DNA of 64,000 nucleotides, from sequence record OQ873415.1; one strand, 5' to 3'. Origin of the DNA: Escherichia phage PECP20. Below, in pieces: positions 1,204-41,590 of the stretch. Below the pieces are notes generated by a model. The model was not told where the DNA came from and did not search any database. It saw nothing but the letters and a program-made list of their open reading frames with translations. Numbering within the stretch: position 1 is the stretch's first letter; each line of letters opens with the position of its first letter. The translations under genes were made by a program, and so were the position numbers.

Positions 1204-1689
1204 TTAAGCTTTACGAGGAGACACATAGCGAGTGATTTCAGATTCTTTAACAACTCGGAAGTCACCTAAGAATACGATATTGTATAACTTTTCACCATCT
1301 TCTACCCATTGGTCACTAATGAAGCCACACATAGTATCAGTTTTGCTTGGATAACCGTATTCATCGATGAAGTCAAATTCTTTATCAGTCTGGAATTCAA
1401 CACCTTTACACAAGGCCCATTTGAACTGTGCATTAGGCTCTGTGGATTCAACTTTTTCTCTTGAAGCAAAAGCACCACTCACAGGAGTTTCCAAGAACTT
1501 TGCACGAACATAAGCAAATTGGGTTTCCATTGACCCAAGACTAGGAATAATACGAACTTTTACCTCAGAATCTTCATCTTTAACACCTTCTTTAAGTTGA
1601 ATACTTACAACTTCGACCAATTTTCCTGCTGCTTTAGAACGAGATTTGTTAGATACGCGAACGATTTCACCAATAATACCAAGATTCAT
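1204..1689 (-). CDS. hypothetical protein, tandem paralog family member (161 aa)
   Basis: Same conserved C-terminal block (ISDQWVEDGEKLYNIVFLGDF). Confidence 0.65.
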   Translation of the reverse strand: MNLGIIGEIVRVSNKSRSKAAGKLVEVVSIQLKEGVKDEDSEVKVRIIPSLGSMETQFAYVRAKFLETPVSGAFASREKVESTEPNAQFKWALCKGVEFQTDKEFDFIDEYGYPSKTDTMCGFISDQWVEDGEKLYNIVFLGDFRVVKESEITRYVSPRKA

Positions 1690-1750: not shown

Positions 1751-2245
1751 TTAATTAAGGATATTAACCACAGCACTACGTGGAACTACACTAAAATCAC
1801 CTGCATGAACAACGTTCAGAAGTTCAACACCGTCTTCAATCCACTGATCAGTCACCCATCCATTTACTGGACCAGCGAATGGGCGTCGAATTGAAACATA
1901 TTTACACAACAAATCGGTAGGCTCAATAGGCTTAATCAGAGTACCGTACATACAAGCGATATCCATATCAATACAGATATCTTTAACGGGTTCTACTTCT
2001 TCAATCAACAGTTCAAAGTCGGTGCTTGGAAGGGCGGTGGTAGAAATTGTACCATATGAATTTTTAATTTCTAAGAATAACCAAGGGCCTTCAACTTGTT
2101 TGATGAAGTTAACAATAGTGAAACTATTACCTTGAGTGGCACCTAAAATTTCGCAAAACTTTTCATAAGCTCGCACTGAAGCACTGTACCAGTTGATTTG
2201 TTTTTCGTCTTTCAGGATATAAGTAGCCGTAGTATTGATATTCAT
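1751..2245 (-). CDS. hypothetical protein, tandem paralog family member (164 aa)
   Basis: C-terminal VTDQWIEDGVELLNVVHAGDF matches paralog block. Confidence 0.65.
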   Translation of the reverse strand: MNINTTATYILKDEKQINWYSASVRAYEKFCEILGATQGNSFTIVNFIKQVEGPWLFLEIKNSYGTISTTALPSTDFELLIEEVEPVKDICIDMDIACMYGTLIKPIEPTDLLCKYVSIRRPFAGPVNGWVTDQWIEDGVELLNVVHAGDFSVVPRSAVVNILN

Positions 2246-2276
2246 AATGTTTTTCCTGTTTGGTTAAGATAGAAAG

Positions 2277-2306
2277 ATTATACTCCAACCATCCTTGGTT
2301 GTAAAC
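2277..2306 (-). promoter_or_regulatory. T4-type early promoter (GTTTAC-N18-TATAAT on minus strand)
   Basis: Plus-strand attatactccaaccatccttggttgtaaac between dexA stop and next gene start. Confidence 0.45.
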
Positions 2307-2311
2307 TGATT

Positions 2312-2989
2312 TTATCGCTGTTTTACACTTAACGGGTCAGGATTCTCAGGGACATCTTCAAGGCCAAGCGCATAACGCTGAGCATATTTTAACATCAAAA
2401 TATCTTTAGCACAATCATGAACACTATCATGGGCAACGAATCCTTTTAGCGTACCCATTGGTAACGGACACATACTTAATCCTCGCGTCAACGAGTAAGC
2501 TTCGATTGCCGTACGAATATCGCGTTGAGCCCAGAATTTAACCGGTTCTAATTTATCAGTATCAATATCTGGTTCAAGAACACCTTCATCACGATAGAGG
2601 TCACGAATCAAATCGACCAAGATTGGGAAGTCAAAACTCATACCACGGCACCACATTTGTGATTTCCATTGGTCAACTTTATTAGCTCGACAATAATCTA
2701 AAAAGATTTTAATGCCATCAAGCGTAGTGACATCGTCTTCAGATGGGGCCAAGTTTTTACGTGCTTCAGCCGATTGTTCTTTCCACCATTTCATGGTGGA
2801 TTTAGCGAAAACTCGCTTCCCTTTTTGAGAAGCTAAATTAAATTTAATTCGCTTACCTCGTTGAACAAGTTCTTCGAATGATTCAACAACTTCAGGGTCT
2901 GAATTATATGCAATAACCGCAAGGTCAATAACAGCCGCTTTTGATGTATTGCCGAATGTTTCAAAGTCTATAATAACATCAGTGCTCAT
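2312..2989 (-). CDS. dexA: exonuclease A (DnaQ-like DEDD 3'-5' exonuclease)
   Basis: 225 aa; N-terminal IIDFETFG exo I motif; immediately downstream of dda as in T4. Confidence 0.8.
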   Translation of the reverse strand: MSTDVIIDFETFGNTSKAAVIDLAVIAYNSDPEVVESFEELVQRGKRIKFNLASQKGKRVFAKSTMKWWKEQSAEARKNLAPSEDDVTTLDGIKIFLDYCRANKVDQWKSQMWCRGMSFDFPILVDLIRDLYRDEGVLEPDIDTDKLEPVKFWAQRDIRTAIEAYSLTRGLSMCPLPMGTLKGFVAHDSVHDCAKDILMLKYAQRYALGLEDVPENPDPLSVKQR

Positions 2990-2998
2990 AATTTTCTC

Positions 2999-4312
2999 TC
3001 AAATAAAATGGACGTCAAAACGACCACGAGTTGTGCCGACATACAATAGCTGTTTAGCTAATTCTGAATCGGCATAATGGATACACGGTGTATAAACAAA
3101 GGCCGTGTCAACAGACATACCCTGAGCCTTATGGAAGGTTGATACAGGTAGCGCCTTCACCTTAGTGAACATGCGTTTAGCATCCCAGAATTTACTCCAT
3201 GGAGCTTTACCACCTTTATTCCAGAATTTGTATGTTTCTGCGGTCTTAGCCAAAAACAAATTGAATTTATAAAGCTCTTCTTCGGAAGAAATAACCTTTA
3301 TATCCTCGCGGACGTATTCTTCATCATCCCCATATGTTTCTACTGTAAGATTCCAGTATCGTATCATATATTCGCCTGAAACACCACGTGCTTTAACGAA
3401 TGTAGACGTTTCTACAGCATCTCGAATACGAACGAATTGCCCGTTATTGAAAAGCATTTCGGTCATATTTTTGCCATCTAGCTTATACGTCTTGGTAAAC
3501 GGCTCTTGTAGAACAATGACTTCGTCTTTAATAAATGGCTTTTCTGTTTCAAGAAGTTTTCGGCGAATAATTGAATTTAACTTGTCCACCGACTTATTTG
3601 TGAATGCCATCATTCGATTTTCGAAAAGGTCTTCAGGAGTTTTAACGACATTAAAATAGTTCATCATATACGATTTAAGGTCTGTATATCCATGAACACC
3701 GTGCCCATCAACTACTTTATCATAAATCCATTTGCCATTACGAATATCAGTCGCAACATCAATAATTGGTGCATTGCTACGTTTAACTTCTGTAAGGTTG
3801 CATTGCACGAAGTCTTTGTGAGTGAAGAAAGGACTTAGATACGCAGTGGATTCGCCTGGGTCTACCGGACGAATCTGGCATCGGTCACCAATTCCAATTA
3901 CTGTGCACCATTTAGGGATACTAGCTAACATTATTTTAAACAGAGAACGGTCACACATTGATGCTTCATCAAATAACAGTACACGACACAAGGCTAAGTC
4001 GGGAACCTTTTTCTGTTCAAATAATACGTTTTCTTCGTATGTAGTTGGGTTGATTTTAAGAATGCTATGAATAGTCGATGCTTCTTGACCCGCAAGTTTG
4101 CTTAGAACCTTTTTAGCAGCATGTGTAGGGGCTGCTAAAATAATACCTGATTCTCCGGCAGAAATAAGGGCTTCAACGATGAATCTAGTAAGGGTTGTTT
4201 TACCTGTACCAGCAGGCCCGTTAATAGTTACGTGATGTTTCTTTTCTTTAATAGCTTTCATAACAACGTTGAAGGCGTTTTTCTGGCCTTCGGTCAAATC
4301 ATCAAATGTCAT
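2999..4312 (-). CDS. dda: Dda DNA helicase (SF1B)
   Basis: 437 aa; near-colinear with T4 Dda as recalled (MTFDDLTEGQKNAFN..., Walker A GPAGTGKTT). Confidence 0.95.
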   Translation of the reverse strand: MTFDDLTEGQKNAFNVVMKAIKEKKHHVTINGPAGTGKTTLTRFIVEALISAGESGIILAAPTHAAKKVLSKLAGQEASTIHSILKINPTTYEENVLFEQKKVPDLALCRVLLFDEASMCDRSLFKIMLASIPKWCTVIGIGDRCQIRPVDPGESTAYLSPFFTHKDFVQCNLTEVKRSNAPIIDVATDIRNGKWIYDKVVDGHGVHGYTDLKSYMMNYFNVVKTPEDLFENRMMAFTNKSVDKLNSIIRRKLLETEKPFIKDEVIVLQEPFTKTYKLDGKNMTEMLFNNGQFVRIRDAVETSTFVKARGVSGEYMIRYWNLTVETYGDDEEYVREDIKVISSEEELYKFNLFLAKTAETYKFWNKGGKAPWSKFWDAKRMFTKVKALPVSTFHKAQGMSVDTAFVYTPCIHYADSELAKQLLYVGTTRGRFDVHFI

Positions 4313-11175: not shown

Positions 11176-11835
11176 TTAACCTCGATTCATAAATGCATTA
11201 AATATTTGGTCATCAACAGAAATTTCTAATTCGGCTTCAATTGCTTCAGCCTTTTCTTCAGGTGGTAATTCGTATCCACACACTACAATTTTTTCATCGA
11301 TATCAAAATATACAGAAGCAATACGATTAATGTTACTTTCAGTTAAGTCTAAATCAACATCAACATCTTTTTGACCTACACTTAAAGGATAACTAATACG
11401 GGTTATTTTATTATCTTTAACAAAGAGTCCACCAACATACTCTGTACTACGTTTGAAGTTTACACGTTTCCGAATTGAAAGATATGATACATCTTTACCG
11501 TGAGCTCGGCTCATAGGACATAATGAATAGCTAGAATAAGAGATGTCAAATCCTACACCTTCAATATGAGCCAACGTGTCATGAGTAAACCAATTATAAT
11601 CATATGCCAAATCCATTAAATTATAATATGTGAAAGGCACTGGATTAACATCATATGTTGTACCTTTAAAATCAGCCCAGGCAACGATTTCGTTATCTTT
11701 AACAATTACAAAAATTACACCAATATGGTATCCGTTATTATTTTCATTCGGCGTTATATTATAACATTGTGCATTAGGAAATTTACCATATTTAAATGGT
11801 GCGTTTTTGTGCATGTAATAAATCATATTATTCAC
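11176..11835 (-). CDS. hypothetical protein (219 aa)
   Basis: ORF; no motif recognised. Confidence 0.6.
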   Translation of the reverse strand: MNNMIYYMHKNAPFKYGKFPNAQCYNITPNENNNGYHIGVIFVIVKDNEIVAWADFKGTTYDVNPVPFTYYNLMDLAYDYNWFTHDTLAHIEGVGFDISYSSYSLCPMSRAHGKDVSYLSIRKRVNFKRSTEYVGGLFVKDNKITRISYPLSVGQKDVDVDLDLTESNINRIASVYFDIDEKIVVCGYELPPEEKAEAIEAELEISVDDQIFNAFMNRG

Positions 11836-12923: not shown

Positions 12924-13175
12924 CTATTTTAAACTTTTGCGAAATTTGCGTTTTTCTTGACGAATCTGTCGTTTAGTCGGACGTACAGCAAATTTAACGA
13001 AGTCCACTTTGCCGTGTGGAAACTTTTCAGATGCTTCACAGTCCATCATTAGTTCCCATCCTTCTAGAATAAGAGCTTTCCATTGTGTAGTTGATGCAAA
13101 TTCGTATGTTGATGGTTTAAACACAGTTGAATACATATTATCCTCTGAAATCAGCTTCAAAAACTTTCTCGTCAT
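12924..13175 (-). CDS. hypothetical basic protein with C-terminal VRPTKRQ motif (83 aa)
   Basis: ORF; C-terminus resembles the small ORF at 40935..41105. Confidence 0.45.
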   Translation of the reverse strand: MTRKFLKLISEDNMYSTVFKPSTYEFASTTQWKALILEGWELMMDCEASEKFPHGKVDFVKFAVRPTKRQIRQEKRKFRKSLK

Positions 13176-13350
13176 TAATAAATGCTTTAACTAATGCATT
13201 GTTCACTTCAGCAAGTTGTACCGTAACCCACTCGATTTCTTCGCGATCACCTGATAATATGATATCTTTAGTGAACATCTCGCCGCTTTTAAACCAGCCA
13301 ATAAAAGTAACTTTAGTTAATTTGCTCATATTTCCTCGCAAAATGCCCAT
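13138..13350 (-). CDS. hypothetical protein (70 aa)
   Basis: ORF; partial overlaps with both neighbours. Confidence 0.45.
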   Translation of the reverse strand: MGILRGNMSKLTKVTFIGWFKSGEMFTKDIILSGDREEIEWVTVQLAEVNNALVKAFINDEKVFEADFRG

Positions 13351-13643
13351 TCAGCATGATAAACTGTAGCACCTTTAGTATCATTCATTTGAACTACATC
13401 TACCGGAGAAATTACTCGATAGAGACGTGGTTCACCTCCATAAGAGCGTGCTGCTCGTCCTGCGTAAATCTTTGCTAAACCGATATCTTCAGTAAAGAAT
13501 ACACGATTCAAGTTTTTCTTACGTCCGGTTTCAGACAGAACTCCTGTTTCTTCAGGAGGACAAAGCATGTTTTCGATTTTAGCTGAACTACTTGAACCGT
13601 GATAAAAAATCTTAAATTCTGCTTTACAATCGATGGTTTTCAT
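13326..13643 (-). CDS. hypothetical protein with HGS motif (105 aa)
   Basis: ORF preceded by promoter cassette; FYHGSSSS motif. Confidence 0.55.
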   Translation of the reverse strand: MKTIDCKAEFKIFYHGSSSSAKIENMLCPPEETGVLSETGRKKNLNRVFFTEDIGLAKIYAGRAARSYGGEPRLYRVISPVDVVQMNDTKGATVYHAEWAFCEEI

Positions 13644-13698: not shown

Positions 13699-14073
13699 TT
13701 AAAAACGTAATTTAGATATATCTGCGTTGATTTCGTTTTGGTTTGCGTCGTATGCAATTAAACGAACCGCTTTAGATGGGTCATTCAATGCATAGAAATG
13801 ATGGAACATTGCTCGAACGATATCACCATTTACGAGTTCTACCTGGATAGGAGAACCTTTTTCGAGTTGGAAATGTTCATAAGCTTTGATGGTTCGCAGA
13901 TAATCAAGTTTTTGATTTCCAGCTCCAACTATTTGTACGATACGTTTGCCCATGTTTTCCATACGAGATACAATAGTTTTAGGAGCAAGAATAACGTAGG
14001 TTGCCAGTGGAGAAACTACTTCAACAGTTGTGTTTTCGGTGATTGCAGTAAAAATTGCTTGAGACATATTCAT
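13699..14073 (-). CDS. hypothetical protein (124 aa)
   Basis: ORF immediately downstream of gene 41. Confidence 0.6.
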   Translation of the reverse strand: MNMSQAIFTAITENTTVEVVSPLATYVILAPKTIVSRMENMGKRIVQIVGAGNQKLDYLRTIKAYEHFQLEKGSPIQVELVNGDIVRAMFHHFYALNDPSKAVRLIAYDANQNEINADISKLRF

Positions 14074-40425: not shown

Positions 40426-40895
40426 TTTAAACTCTTTCTAAGCTGCTTTTTGAATGAAGCTATTAATTGTGTTTTAGTATCAGATTCATTATATTCAAAT
40501 CCTCTTTGAAGCATCTCAGTCATCATTTCCTCTTTACCTAGTCTTGAGAACTCTTTAGTTTTGTCTGGAACAAAATTAGGATGGATATTATTATCAGAAT
40601 AATCTTGTTTCAAATAAGCAAGAAGAGCTTCAAGCCATTCGAGGTAGTCGACATCACGACCTTTAAGACCAGAACGGTTGAACTTATGCTTCATTTGGCC
40701 TTCTGCTGCGTTGCACAGATTACAGAGTAATCCACGAACTCTACCGGCTTTTGGCCCGTTTAACTCGTGGTCGTGGTCAAGATGGTTACCTTGAACATCA
40801 GGGTCTAATTCACGGTGGCAAATAGGACACTTACCGTTCTGTGCATCATAAAATTTTTGTTTTTCTTCTTTATATTTTGCGCCTGATAATAACAT
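40422..40895 (-). CDS. 49: endonuclease VII (Holliday junction resolvase, gp49)
   Basis: 157 aa; near-identical to T4 gp49 as recalled (GKCPICHREL...HELNGPKAG). Confidence 0.95.
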   Translation of the reverse strand: MLLSGAKYKEEKQKFYDAQNGKCPICHRELDPDVQGNHLDHDHELNGPKAGRVRGLLCNLCNAAEGQMKHKFNRSGLKGRDVDYLEWLEALLAYLKQDYSDNNIHPNFVPDKTKEFSRLGKEEMMTEMLQRGFEYNESDTKTQLIASFKKQLRKSLK

Positions 40896-40934
40896 GATAA
40901 ACCCTTACCTTAAATAGATAAGGGTATTTATAAT

Positions 40935-41105
40935 TTAGTAAATGTTATAAAAGTTACGATGAGAACGTTTAGCTTTGCGAAGCTGACGTTTAGTAGGACG
41001 AACTGTAAATGGTTGTCCAGAGAAAAAATTCGGATCGGTTTTAATAAGCAAATACCAATCACGCTTGCCATTTTTTAATAAACGGTACAATAATTTAACT
41101 TGCAT
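40935..41105 (-). CDS. small basic protein with C-terminal VRPTKRQ motif (56 aa)
   Basis: Hand-translated ORF MQVKLLYRLLKNGKRDWY...FTVRPTKRQLRKAKR; paralogous C-terminus to 12924..13175. Confidence 0.35.
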   Translation of the reverse strand: MQVKLLYRLLKNGKRDWYLLIKTDPNFFSGQPFTVRPTKRQLRKAKRSHRNFYNIY

Positions 41106-41233
41106 AATAATCTCTTCCCATTTCCATATCGATTAATTCATTTATTGAAGGTTCATCATAACATGGTTCTTCGTCGTTGTAAACTGTTTCGACGTCTGGC
41201 TCGACAGTCTCCCATCGAGCAGAATACCACGGT

Positions 41234-41590
41234 TTAACCCCGGAGTTTATTGAGCTCTTCATAATCAATCCAGGATTCTAGCCCTGACGGCAGGTCACAT
41301 TCAATGTTCCACAGAAGCTCTTCAATGGCTTGCAGGCGATTATATTCTTCAACGGTAATGGTAACCATTGGTGCAACCGGTTCTGCCTTTTTAACCATCA
41401 TGTCATTCATCAGGACATACAAGTCATCACGAACGACGGTGTCGTTCCAACCCCATGATTTGGCTTCATACGCTAATGATGAAGGGAGCACATTTAAAAC
41501 TTCAATAATAGATGGAGATTCAGGACCAAGCTCTGATACACAAACTTCGTATGCATCTTGGAAATCTTTAAGATTTAATGAATATGTCAT
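41234..41590 (-). CDS. hypothetical protein (118 aa)
   Basis: ORF. Confidence 0.6.
   Translation of the reverse strand: MTYSLNLKDFQDAYEVCVSELGPESPSIIEVLNVLPSSLAYEAKSWGWNDTVVRDDLYVLMNDMMVKKAEPVAPMVTITVEEYNRLQAIEELLWNIECDLPSGLESWIDYEELNKLRG

Follow-up and report, generated by a model that had tools for sequence, protein, structure and literature searches.

The 64-kb stretch of Escherichia phage PECP20 DNA analyzed here (the window) represents an RB69-like T4-type phage genome (Straboviridae, Mosigvirus) and encodes two small proteins carrying the motif VRPTKRQ[IL]R in their C-terminal parts. This raises the question of which family the motif marks, and what the shorter of the two proteins might do for the phage. 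In our overall reading, which we hold with good confidence, both open reading frames (ORFs) belong to the TifA family, the first (ORF A) being TifA itself and the second (ORF B) an RNA-binding paralog of recombinant origin with a different partner. Both regions were 99.6-100% identical to Escherichia phage CAU_ECP01, and the TifA region was about 98% identical to RB69. Landmarks on the minus strand of the window included gp41, dmd, imm, sp, nrdD, gene 49, and nrdC. Direct reading of the sequence located both ORFs and the shared motif where the preliminary description had placed them, on the minus strand in each case, a detail that it had not given. A motif search, as it had proposed, was run as a six-frame regular-expression scan of the 64 kb and detected RPT[KR][KR]Q and looser forms at these two sites only. 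The coordinates of all features are given in Table 1.

Table 1. Features of the two TifA-family loci (positions within the window; -, minus strand; AF2, structure prediction).
Feature	Position	Strand	Remarks
AdfA, anti-DarT factor A	11176..11835	-	Pfam AdfA match, E 7.6e-119
ORF A, tifA (gene 61.4)	12924..13136	-	70 aa; 100% amino acid identity to RB69 gp61.4 (AAP75940)
ORF A, 83-aa reading	12924..13175	-	overlaps dmd; C-terminus ...FAVRPTKRQIRQEKRKFRKSLK
TifA motif V51-R-P53-T54-K55-R56-Q-I-R59	12960..12986	-	sequence read directly
dmd (inhibitor of RnlA/LsoA toxins)	13138..13329	-	Pfam Dmd PF17587, E 1.7e-21; RB69 annotation
3' flank from 081-type copy	40901..40932	-	late-promoter-like TATAAATA 40925..40932 and 10-bp hairpin 40901..40925
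ORF B, TifA-family (DUF7279) paralog, 56 aa	40935..41105	-	stop TAA 40935..40937; PF23945; AF2
ORF B basic C-terminal alpha-helix, residues 39-55	40941..40991	-	AF2 prediction; block pLDDT 83-89
Crossover zone CATCGTAACTTTTATA, codons 49-53 and next base	40946..40961	-	three-way DNA alignment with NBG1
ORF B motif V35-R-P-T-K-R-Q-L-R43	40977..41003	-	P37/T38, helix N-cap
gp49.1 homolog	41095..41262	-	translation identical to RB69 49.1

That ORF A is TifA (T4/RB69 gp61.4) is virtually certain. Its product is the RB69 protein without any exchange, and it matched Pfam family PF23945 (DUF7279) with 72.1 bits (E 3.5e-20) and PHROG 2375 with an E value of 1.4e-29. The 83-aa protein given in the preliminary description is probably 13 codons too long, since the RB69 gene in GenBank begins at an internal Met at 13136, as does the published functional construct. 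This Met, which is preceded by GAGGA and lies 2 nt past the dmd stop codon, is almost certainly the true start as judged from the sequence, and the motif numbering of the resulting 70-aa reading is exactly that of the published mutants (P53, T54, K55, R56, and R59). The gene dmd lies directly upstream of tifA in the window; in T4, both genes are co-operonic (PMC9391042). Together with dmd and tifA, the match to AdfA confirms that this phage possesses the published anti-TA island in full, with ORF A at its expected place. Inside this island, between gp41 and dmd, two further ORFs of 105 aa (13326..13643) and 124 aa (13699..14073) were found on the minus strand. They are the equivalents of RB69ORF040c and 041c, revealed no Pfam match, and are missing from the T4 layout given in the TifA papers; they could be further counter-defence candidates.

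Our sources for the biology of TifA were Srikant et al. 2022 (eLife) and Guegler et al. 2024 (NAR). Since 2022, gene 61.4 has borne the name tifA; its product inhibits and co-precipitates with the endoribonuclease ToxN, and T4 escapes from the type III toxin-antitoxin system toxIN by amplification of dmd-tifA, additional tifA copies being required to beat a plasmid-borne toxIN (PMC9391042). The follow-up study was mostly performed with RB69 TifA, i.e., the protein encoded by ORF A (PMC10853763). It described a Pro-Thr pair which forms a helix cap, with a basic cluster directly behind it, both conserved in homologs, and the substitutions P53A/T54A and K55A/R56A/R59A each abolished RNA co-purification, ToxN binding, and ToxN inhibition (PMC10853763). 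Heterogeneous RNA is co-purified with TifA alone, ssDNA as well as dsDNA are bound by it in vitro, 16S rRNA is specifically enriched in the ToxN-TifA complex, and the mechanism proposed is that ToxN is trapped on abundant RNA and no longer acts as a multiple-turnover RNase (PMC10853763). Natural and evolved substitutions at position 41, in a loop within the predicted ToxN interface, tune ToxN inhibition (PMC10853763).

Thus, the nucleic acid or ribosome binding suggested in the preliminary description is borne out for ORF A by experiments on the identical RB69 protein (PMC10853763), while for ORF B homology argues for it. That suggestion was less specific than the role of TifA as a counter-defence factor against a toxin RNase, and the known family had not been recognized. 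The conservation of the motif in relatives also held: all homologs tested in the TifA paper carry [VTA][RK]PT[KS][KR]Q[IV]R, and hence the core [RK]PT[KS][KR]Q[IV]R. In more distant phages, the motif is retained in the homologs, but these failed to inhibit any ToxN or TenpN toxin of the test panel (PMC10853763); therefore, the motif does not predict the target.

Several comparisons, taken together, indicate that the likeness of ORF A and ORF B reflects true homology and not chance. Against PF23945, ORF B scored 54.0 bits (E 1.6e-14), so that both ORFs are well above the gathering score of 24.5 bits. ORF B matched PHROG 3272 (E 3e-27), and the two ORFs cross-match each other's PHROG. Pairwise BLASTP resulted in 12/19 identities (E = 8e-07). 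Scanning of all 1281 stop-to-stop segments with a family HMM and filters switched off detected the two ORFs with E values of 1.9e-23 and 3.1e-20, the next-best segment having an E value of 0.17; no third family member was found among these segments of the 64-kb window. Alignment of short-type versus long-type families with hhalign gave a probability of 98.1% (E 1.3e-13) over 45 columns. Since this match spans strand 2 with a conserved Trp, strand 3, and the helix, the homology extends past the motif, outside of which ORF B and TifA are about 28% identical. Both ORFs are thus members of the TifA family, whose signature is the VRPTKRQ[IL]R that they have in common.

Word-indexed protein searches with the single ORFs returned two clusters each and an alignment query 25, while an exhaustive profile search among 1.84 billion representative proteins revealed no more than 41 clusters (E <= 1e-3). 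Apart from one, these consist of small proteins (55-161 aa), and a [KR]PT..Q.R core is present in nearly all of them. From these searches, the family is apparently narrow and confined to phages; no cellular homolog that would give a functional clue was detected in the exhaustive search, and PADLOC and NCBIfam resulted in no match. Short-type homologs were found in Tequatrovirus, Gaprivervirus, Dhakavirus, phage Merlin, and phage S16. We found no mention of DUF7279 or PF23945 in the literature searched, and the TifA papers (PMC9391042, PMC10853763) do not mention intragenomic paralogs or copies flanking pin. Accordingly, the motif and its role were already known for TifA, and ORF B is new as a further member of the family.

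The ORF B protein reads MQVKLLYRLLKNGKRDWYLLIKTDPNFFSGQPFTVRPTKRQLRKAKRSHRNFYNIY, ends in ...FTVRPTKRQLRKAKRSHRNFYNIY, and is very basic (pI 11.1; 14 K+R in 56 aa). In the alignments, its residues K39, R40, and R43 correspond to K55, R56, and R59 of TifA, and all five functional residues of TifA are conserved (P37, T38, K39, R40, and R43). Though presented in the preliminary description as an unlisted ORF, it is a called CDS in CAU_ECP01 and many other Mosigvirus genomes. The CAU_ECP01 copy (PQ572755.1, 99039..99209) is labelled 'pyruvate decarboxylase', several of its neighbors being labelled 'thioredoxin'; for a 56-aa DUF7279 protein, the former is clearly a mis-annotation. By tblastn against the phage collection, at least 80% of ORF B was kept in 407 of 410 matching phage records. 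The stop of the upstream gp49.1 homolog and the start of ORF B overlap by 11 nt, in an ATG/stop layout typical of coupled T4 early genes, which suggests translational coupling. The Shine-Dalgarno sequence of ORF B is weak (AAGAG, 6 nt from the ATG). A promoter scan was uninformative, with 16 sites compared to 14.9 expected; a TTTACA-17-TGnTATGAT site (41155..41183) lies 50 nt upstream of ORF B and may be due to chance.

For an analysis of selection, eight Mosigvirus copies of ORF B were compared. Diverged pairs showed pN/pS values of 0.05-0.29 at a pS of 0.25-0.54, and summed over pairs, pN/pS was 0.16 in the frame of ORF B as opposed to 1.75 and 1.69 when the remaining frames were read. Eighteen of the 28 variable sites were third codon positions. 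ORF B is therefore under purifying selection. In the RB69 reference (AY303349, at about 3376..3536 of the locus), the ORF B-type gene contains one extra A in an A-run (TTATTAAAAAAATGG compared to TTATTAAAAAATGG), and the copy frameshifted by +1 is annotated as ORF089c, a 38-aa ORF with a TTG start. This extra A could be a genuine mutation of the laboratory strain or a sequencing error; as the reference copy is frameshifted, the gene would be dispensable at least in the laboratory. In the same accessory region, one 118-aa ORF of the window (41234..41590, minus strand) corresponds to two genes in RB69 (ORF092c and ORF091c) and to one gene in NBG1, which probably points to another frameshift or sequencing error in RB69.

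Comparison with related phages shows how ORF B came about. In RB69, NBG1, and AV117, the gene order is 49.1, a short TifA-like gene (083/ORF089c), pin, a second short TifA-like gene (081/ORF087c), and gene 49; the segment 40895..41105 (minus strand) of the window was compared with NBG1 2035..2809 and RB69 2772..3492 (positions within the extracted loci). Through codon 53, ORF B corresponds to the 083 type (083/RB69ORF089c), and beyond the crossover to the 081 type (081/RB69ORF087c); since codons 52-53 are common to both types, the match to 083 is diagnostic only up to codon 51. The part derived from 081 comprises the last three codons (NIY instead of REY), the stop codon, the TATAAATA box, and the hairpin in front of the gene 49 ATG. 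About 604 nt, i.e., pin and the body of 081, are missing from the window; the two-piece megablast matches spanned about 1855 nt for a query of 1251 nt, and no homolog of pin or 49.2 was found elsewhere in the 64 kb. From these alignments, ORF B is a hybrid generated by recombination within 16 nt of homology in the tails of the two TifA-like genes flanking pin, an event that removed pin and one paralog. The crossover preserved the reading frame and altered no more than the last three residues. About 27 of the 133 Mosigvirus records that matched contain the junction in contiguous form, with 96.5-100% nucleotide identity across it, and a third layout within Mosigvirus consists of 083 and pin without 081.

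In the 3' flank, the late-promoter-like box leads straight into the 10-bp hairpin (-16.1 kcal/mol, z = -3.35). Behind the hairpin come UUUAU and, at 40895, the ATG of gene 49, the likely ribosome-binding site of gene 49 is located in its 3' arm, 6 nt before this ATG, and in NBG1 a terminator is annotated at the equivalent position. In T4, read-through early transcripts mask the ribosome-binding site of gene 49, and late transcripts begin inside the stem. The arrangement of hairpin and late-promoter-like box in the window resembles that of T4 gene 49.

A parallel event occurred in Tequatrovirus. In RB32, pin and the downstream TifA-like gene ORF078c both end in a stretch of c. 50 nt that forms a direct repeat (about 88% identity; copies at 1415..1464 and 1628..1677 of the extracted locus), and T4 carries the product of recombination between these repeats, so that T4 has no ORF078c-type paralog and a Pin with the TifA-like end ...MIQQYKRLHQMFYNT. 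Since the 3' end of pin repeats the end of a TifA-like gene, the last c. 15 residues of T4/RB32 Pin (…MIQQYKRLHQMFYNT) were captured from the basic helix of a TifA-like protein. In the TifA and SegB papers, experiments are reported in which recombination at short homologies drives changes in the accessory genes of T4. The region between gene 49 and nrdC harbors pin and gp49.2 as further counter-defence genes. Pin is an inhibitor of the Lon protease (T4 literature). gp49.2 is an anti-OLD factor (PMC13096335), which explains amplification of the 49.1-nrdC.1 region under OLD defence.

Structure prediction with AF2 resulted in strands at residues 2-9, 15-24, and 27-33 and a helix at 39-55 for ORF B (mean pLDDT 83.8), and in strands at 2-6, 27-33, and 43-49 and a helix at 55-69 for TifA (pLDDT 78.2). 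Both models thus show a three-stranded sheet with a basic C-terminal helix and match the published description of TifA. In BFVD, they share structural neighbors, namely Merlin A0A0K1LNJ9 and KP-Rio A0A1D8ES62. A sequence profile search of the PDB gave no match for either ORF, and a fold search of the PDB revealed nothing below an E value of 0.9; several dsRBD domains at TM 0.44-0.47 were not significant. Compared with TifA, ORF B is without the segment of about 20 residues between strands 1 and 2, and a turn of 2 residues leads from its strand 2 to strand 3, with alignment gaps at the TifA loop carrying residue 41; in the model of ORF A, this loop (34-42, including H41) is present and extended. 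As both the insert and the residue-41 loop are missing, ORF B would keep the RNA-binding module without the known target-recognition element.

In the TifA family, the Pro-Thr pair caps the C-terminal alpha-helix, whose Lys/Arg face binds RNA. TifA, an early protein, binds RNA as well as free ToxN, which is the toxin component of the type III system toxIN, and in the proposed mechanism holds it on abundant RNA, chiefly 16S rRNA; trapped in this way, ToxN is unable to cleave phage transcripts. ORF B would likewise be an early, expressed RNA-binding protein using the same tethering principle on a different protein partner, most likely a further RNA-targeting nuclease among the host defences or a variant of ToxN beyond the coverage of TifA. 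Such an anti-defence RNA binder is suggested by the family, the conserved residues, the predicted fold, purifying selection, the patchy and loss-prone distribution, and the location in a region rich in counter-defence genes. From its sequence, ORF B is very probably a translated RNA binder of the TifA family, the odds that it serves as a counter-defence factor appear roughly even, and a specific action on ToxN-Ec is rather unlikely. As TifA binds ssDNA and dsDNA in vitro, a DNA-related role of ORF B is conceivable.

One alternative is that ORF B acts on the same ToxN as TifA, either redundantly or by adding dosage. It has the family, the predicted fold, and the RNA-binding residues of TifA, and dosage does matter, since T4 needs extra tifA copies against plasmid-borne toxIN (PMC9391042). 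However, ORF B is without the strand 2-3 loop (residue 41) and the strand 1-2 insert, i.e., the predicted ToxN interface, divergent homologs with an intact motif inhibited no tested ToxN (PMC10853763), and the identity to TifA outside the motif is low, so that we regard a second ToxN inhibitor as improbable. Of similarly low probability is a modulator without any defence target, which would bind RNA or DNA in general and act on the ribosome or on the expression of phage genes. The strongly basic character of ORF B, the binding of heterogeneous RNA and of DNA by TifA alone (PMC10853763), and the weak, non-significant resemblance to dsRBD domains would fit such a modulator, but the sole characterized member of the family is a specific counter-defence factor (PMC9391042, PMC10853763), and the gene is patchy, easily lost, and located in accessory regions, as is typical of counter-defence and not of core regulation.

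Clearly less likely still is a non-functional scar, a fusion left by the deletion of pin and open by chance. ORF B is demonstrably a recombination product, its parent gene is frameshifted in RB69, and its Shine-Dalgarno sequence is weak. In contrast, clear purifying selection acts on the parent 083-type gene in the very frame of ORF B, which makes a dead scar unlikely; moreover, the in-frame crossover altered only the last three residues, the hybrid is intact in the c. 27 records across the junction, and short-type homologs occur from Tequatrovirus to phage S16. Finally, conservation of the motif as a recombination or regulatory site in the DNA rather than as a protein feature is highly improbable: though 3' tails of TifA-like genes do serve as recombination substrates and the 081-type tail adjoins the late promoter and hairpin of gene 49, the motif codons differ synonymously (ORF B, GTTCGTCCTACTAAACGTCAGCTTCGC; TifA, GTACGTCCGACTAAACGACAGATTCGT; AV113, GTTCGACCAACT), the crossover lies 3' of the motif, and alanine substitutions of motif residues abolish TifA activity (PMC10853763).

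Returning to ORF B as an RNA-binding paralog with a partner of its own, a comparison with known systems places it next to TifA. Common to both are membership in DUF7279, a PT cap, K/R/R at the three mutated positions, the strand 2 Trp, and the predicted fold. ORF B differs in size (56 aa compared to 70-85 aa), in the missing insert and loop, in a distinctive ...HRNFY tail, and in its position between 49.1 and gene 49 and not beside dmd, which TifA adjoins in the 41-61 early region. RB69ORF087c, RB32ORF078c, and VR20 gp080 (PHROG 3272 group), short TifA-like genes between pin and gene 49, are of the same length class and the closest relatives outside the ORF B type (38-44% identity); G13, W17, RPTK, R43, KR, HR, and FY are invariant among them and ORF B. 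ORF B received its last three codons and its 3' flank from a gene of the RB69ORF087c type. Its body differs (TRPTKKMIRQYKR core compared to VRPTKRQLRKAKR) and is deleted in the window save for the tail. Dmd (T4 gp61.5) and AdfA (gp61.2), both in the anti-TA island of the window, are, like TifA, small early phage proteins neutralizing host toxin-antitoxin systems, but they belong to unrelated folds and families, Dmd being a direct protein inhibitor of RnlA and AdfA countering DarT. To our knowledge, neither is known to require RNA binding, and we know of no described protein other than TifA that inhibits a type III toxin by RNA tethering, its target range being narrow.

Altogether, many T4-type phages carry one or two extra short TifA paralogs in a second accessory region together with pin and the anti-OLD gene 49.2, which suggests that further defences have been countered with the same scaffold for RNA binding. 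Tentatively, the short TifA-like genes around pin might form a distinct subfamily of RNA-tethering inhibitors directed against a defence other than ToxN-Ec, e.g., another type III toxin or an RNA- or tRNA-cleaving system, and their tails might at the same time serve as short homology sites by which counter-defence cassettes are gained, lost, and fused, as in the loss of pin here and the TifA-like tail on Pin of T4/RB32. For annotation, ORF A should be named TifA, and ORF B a TifA-like DUF7279 protein instead of 'pyruvate decarboxylase'. The tail-to-tail recombination represents a concrete natural case of short homologies reshuffling counter-defence genes; the target of the short paralogs and the tail-mediated shuffling of cassettes are the points of interest in this family.
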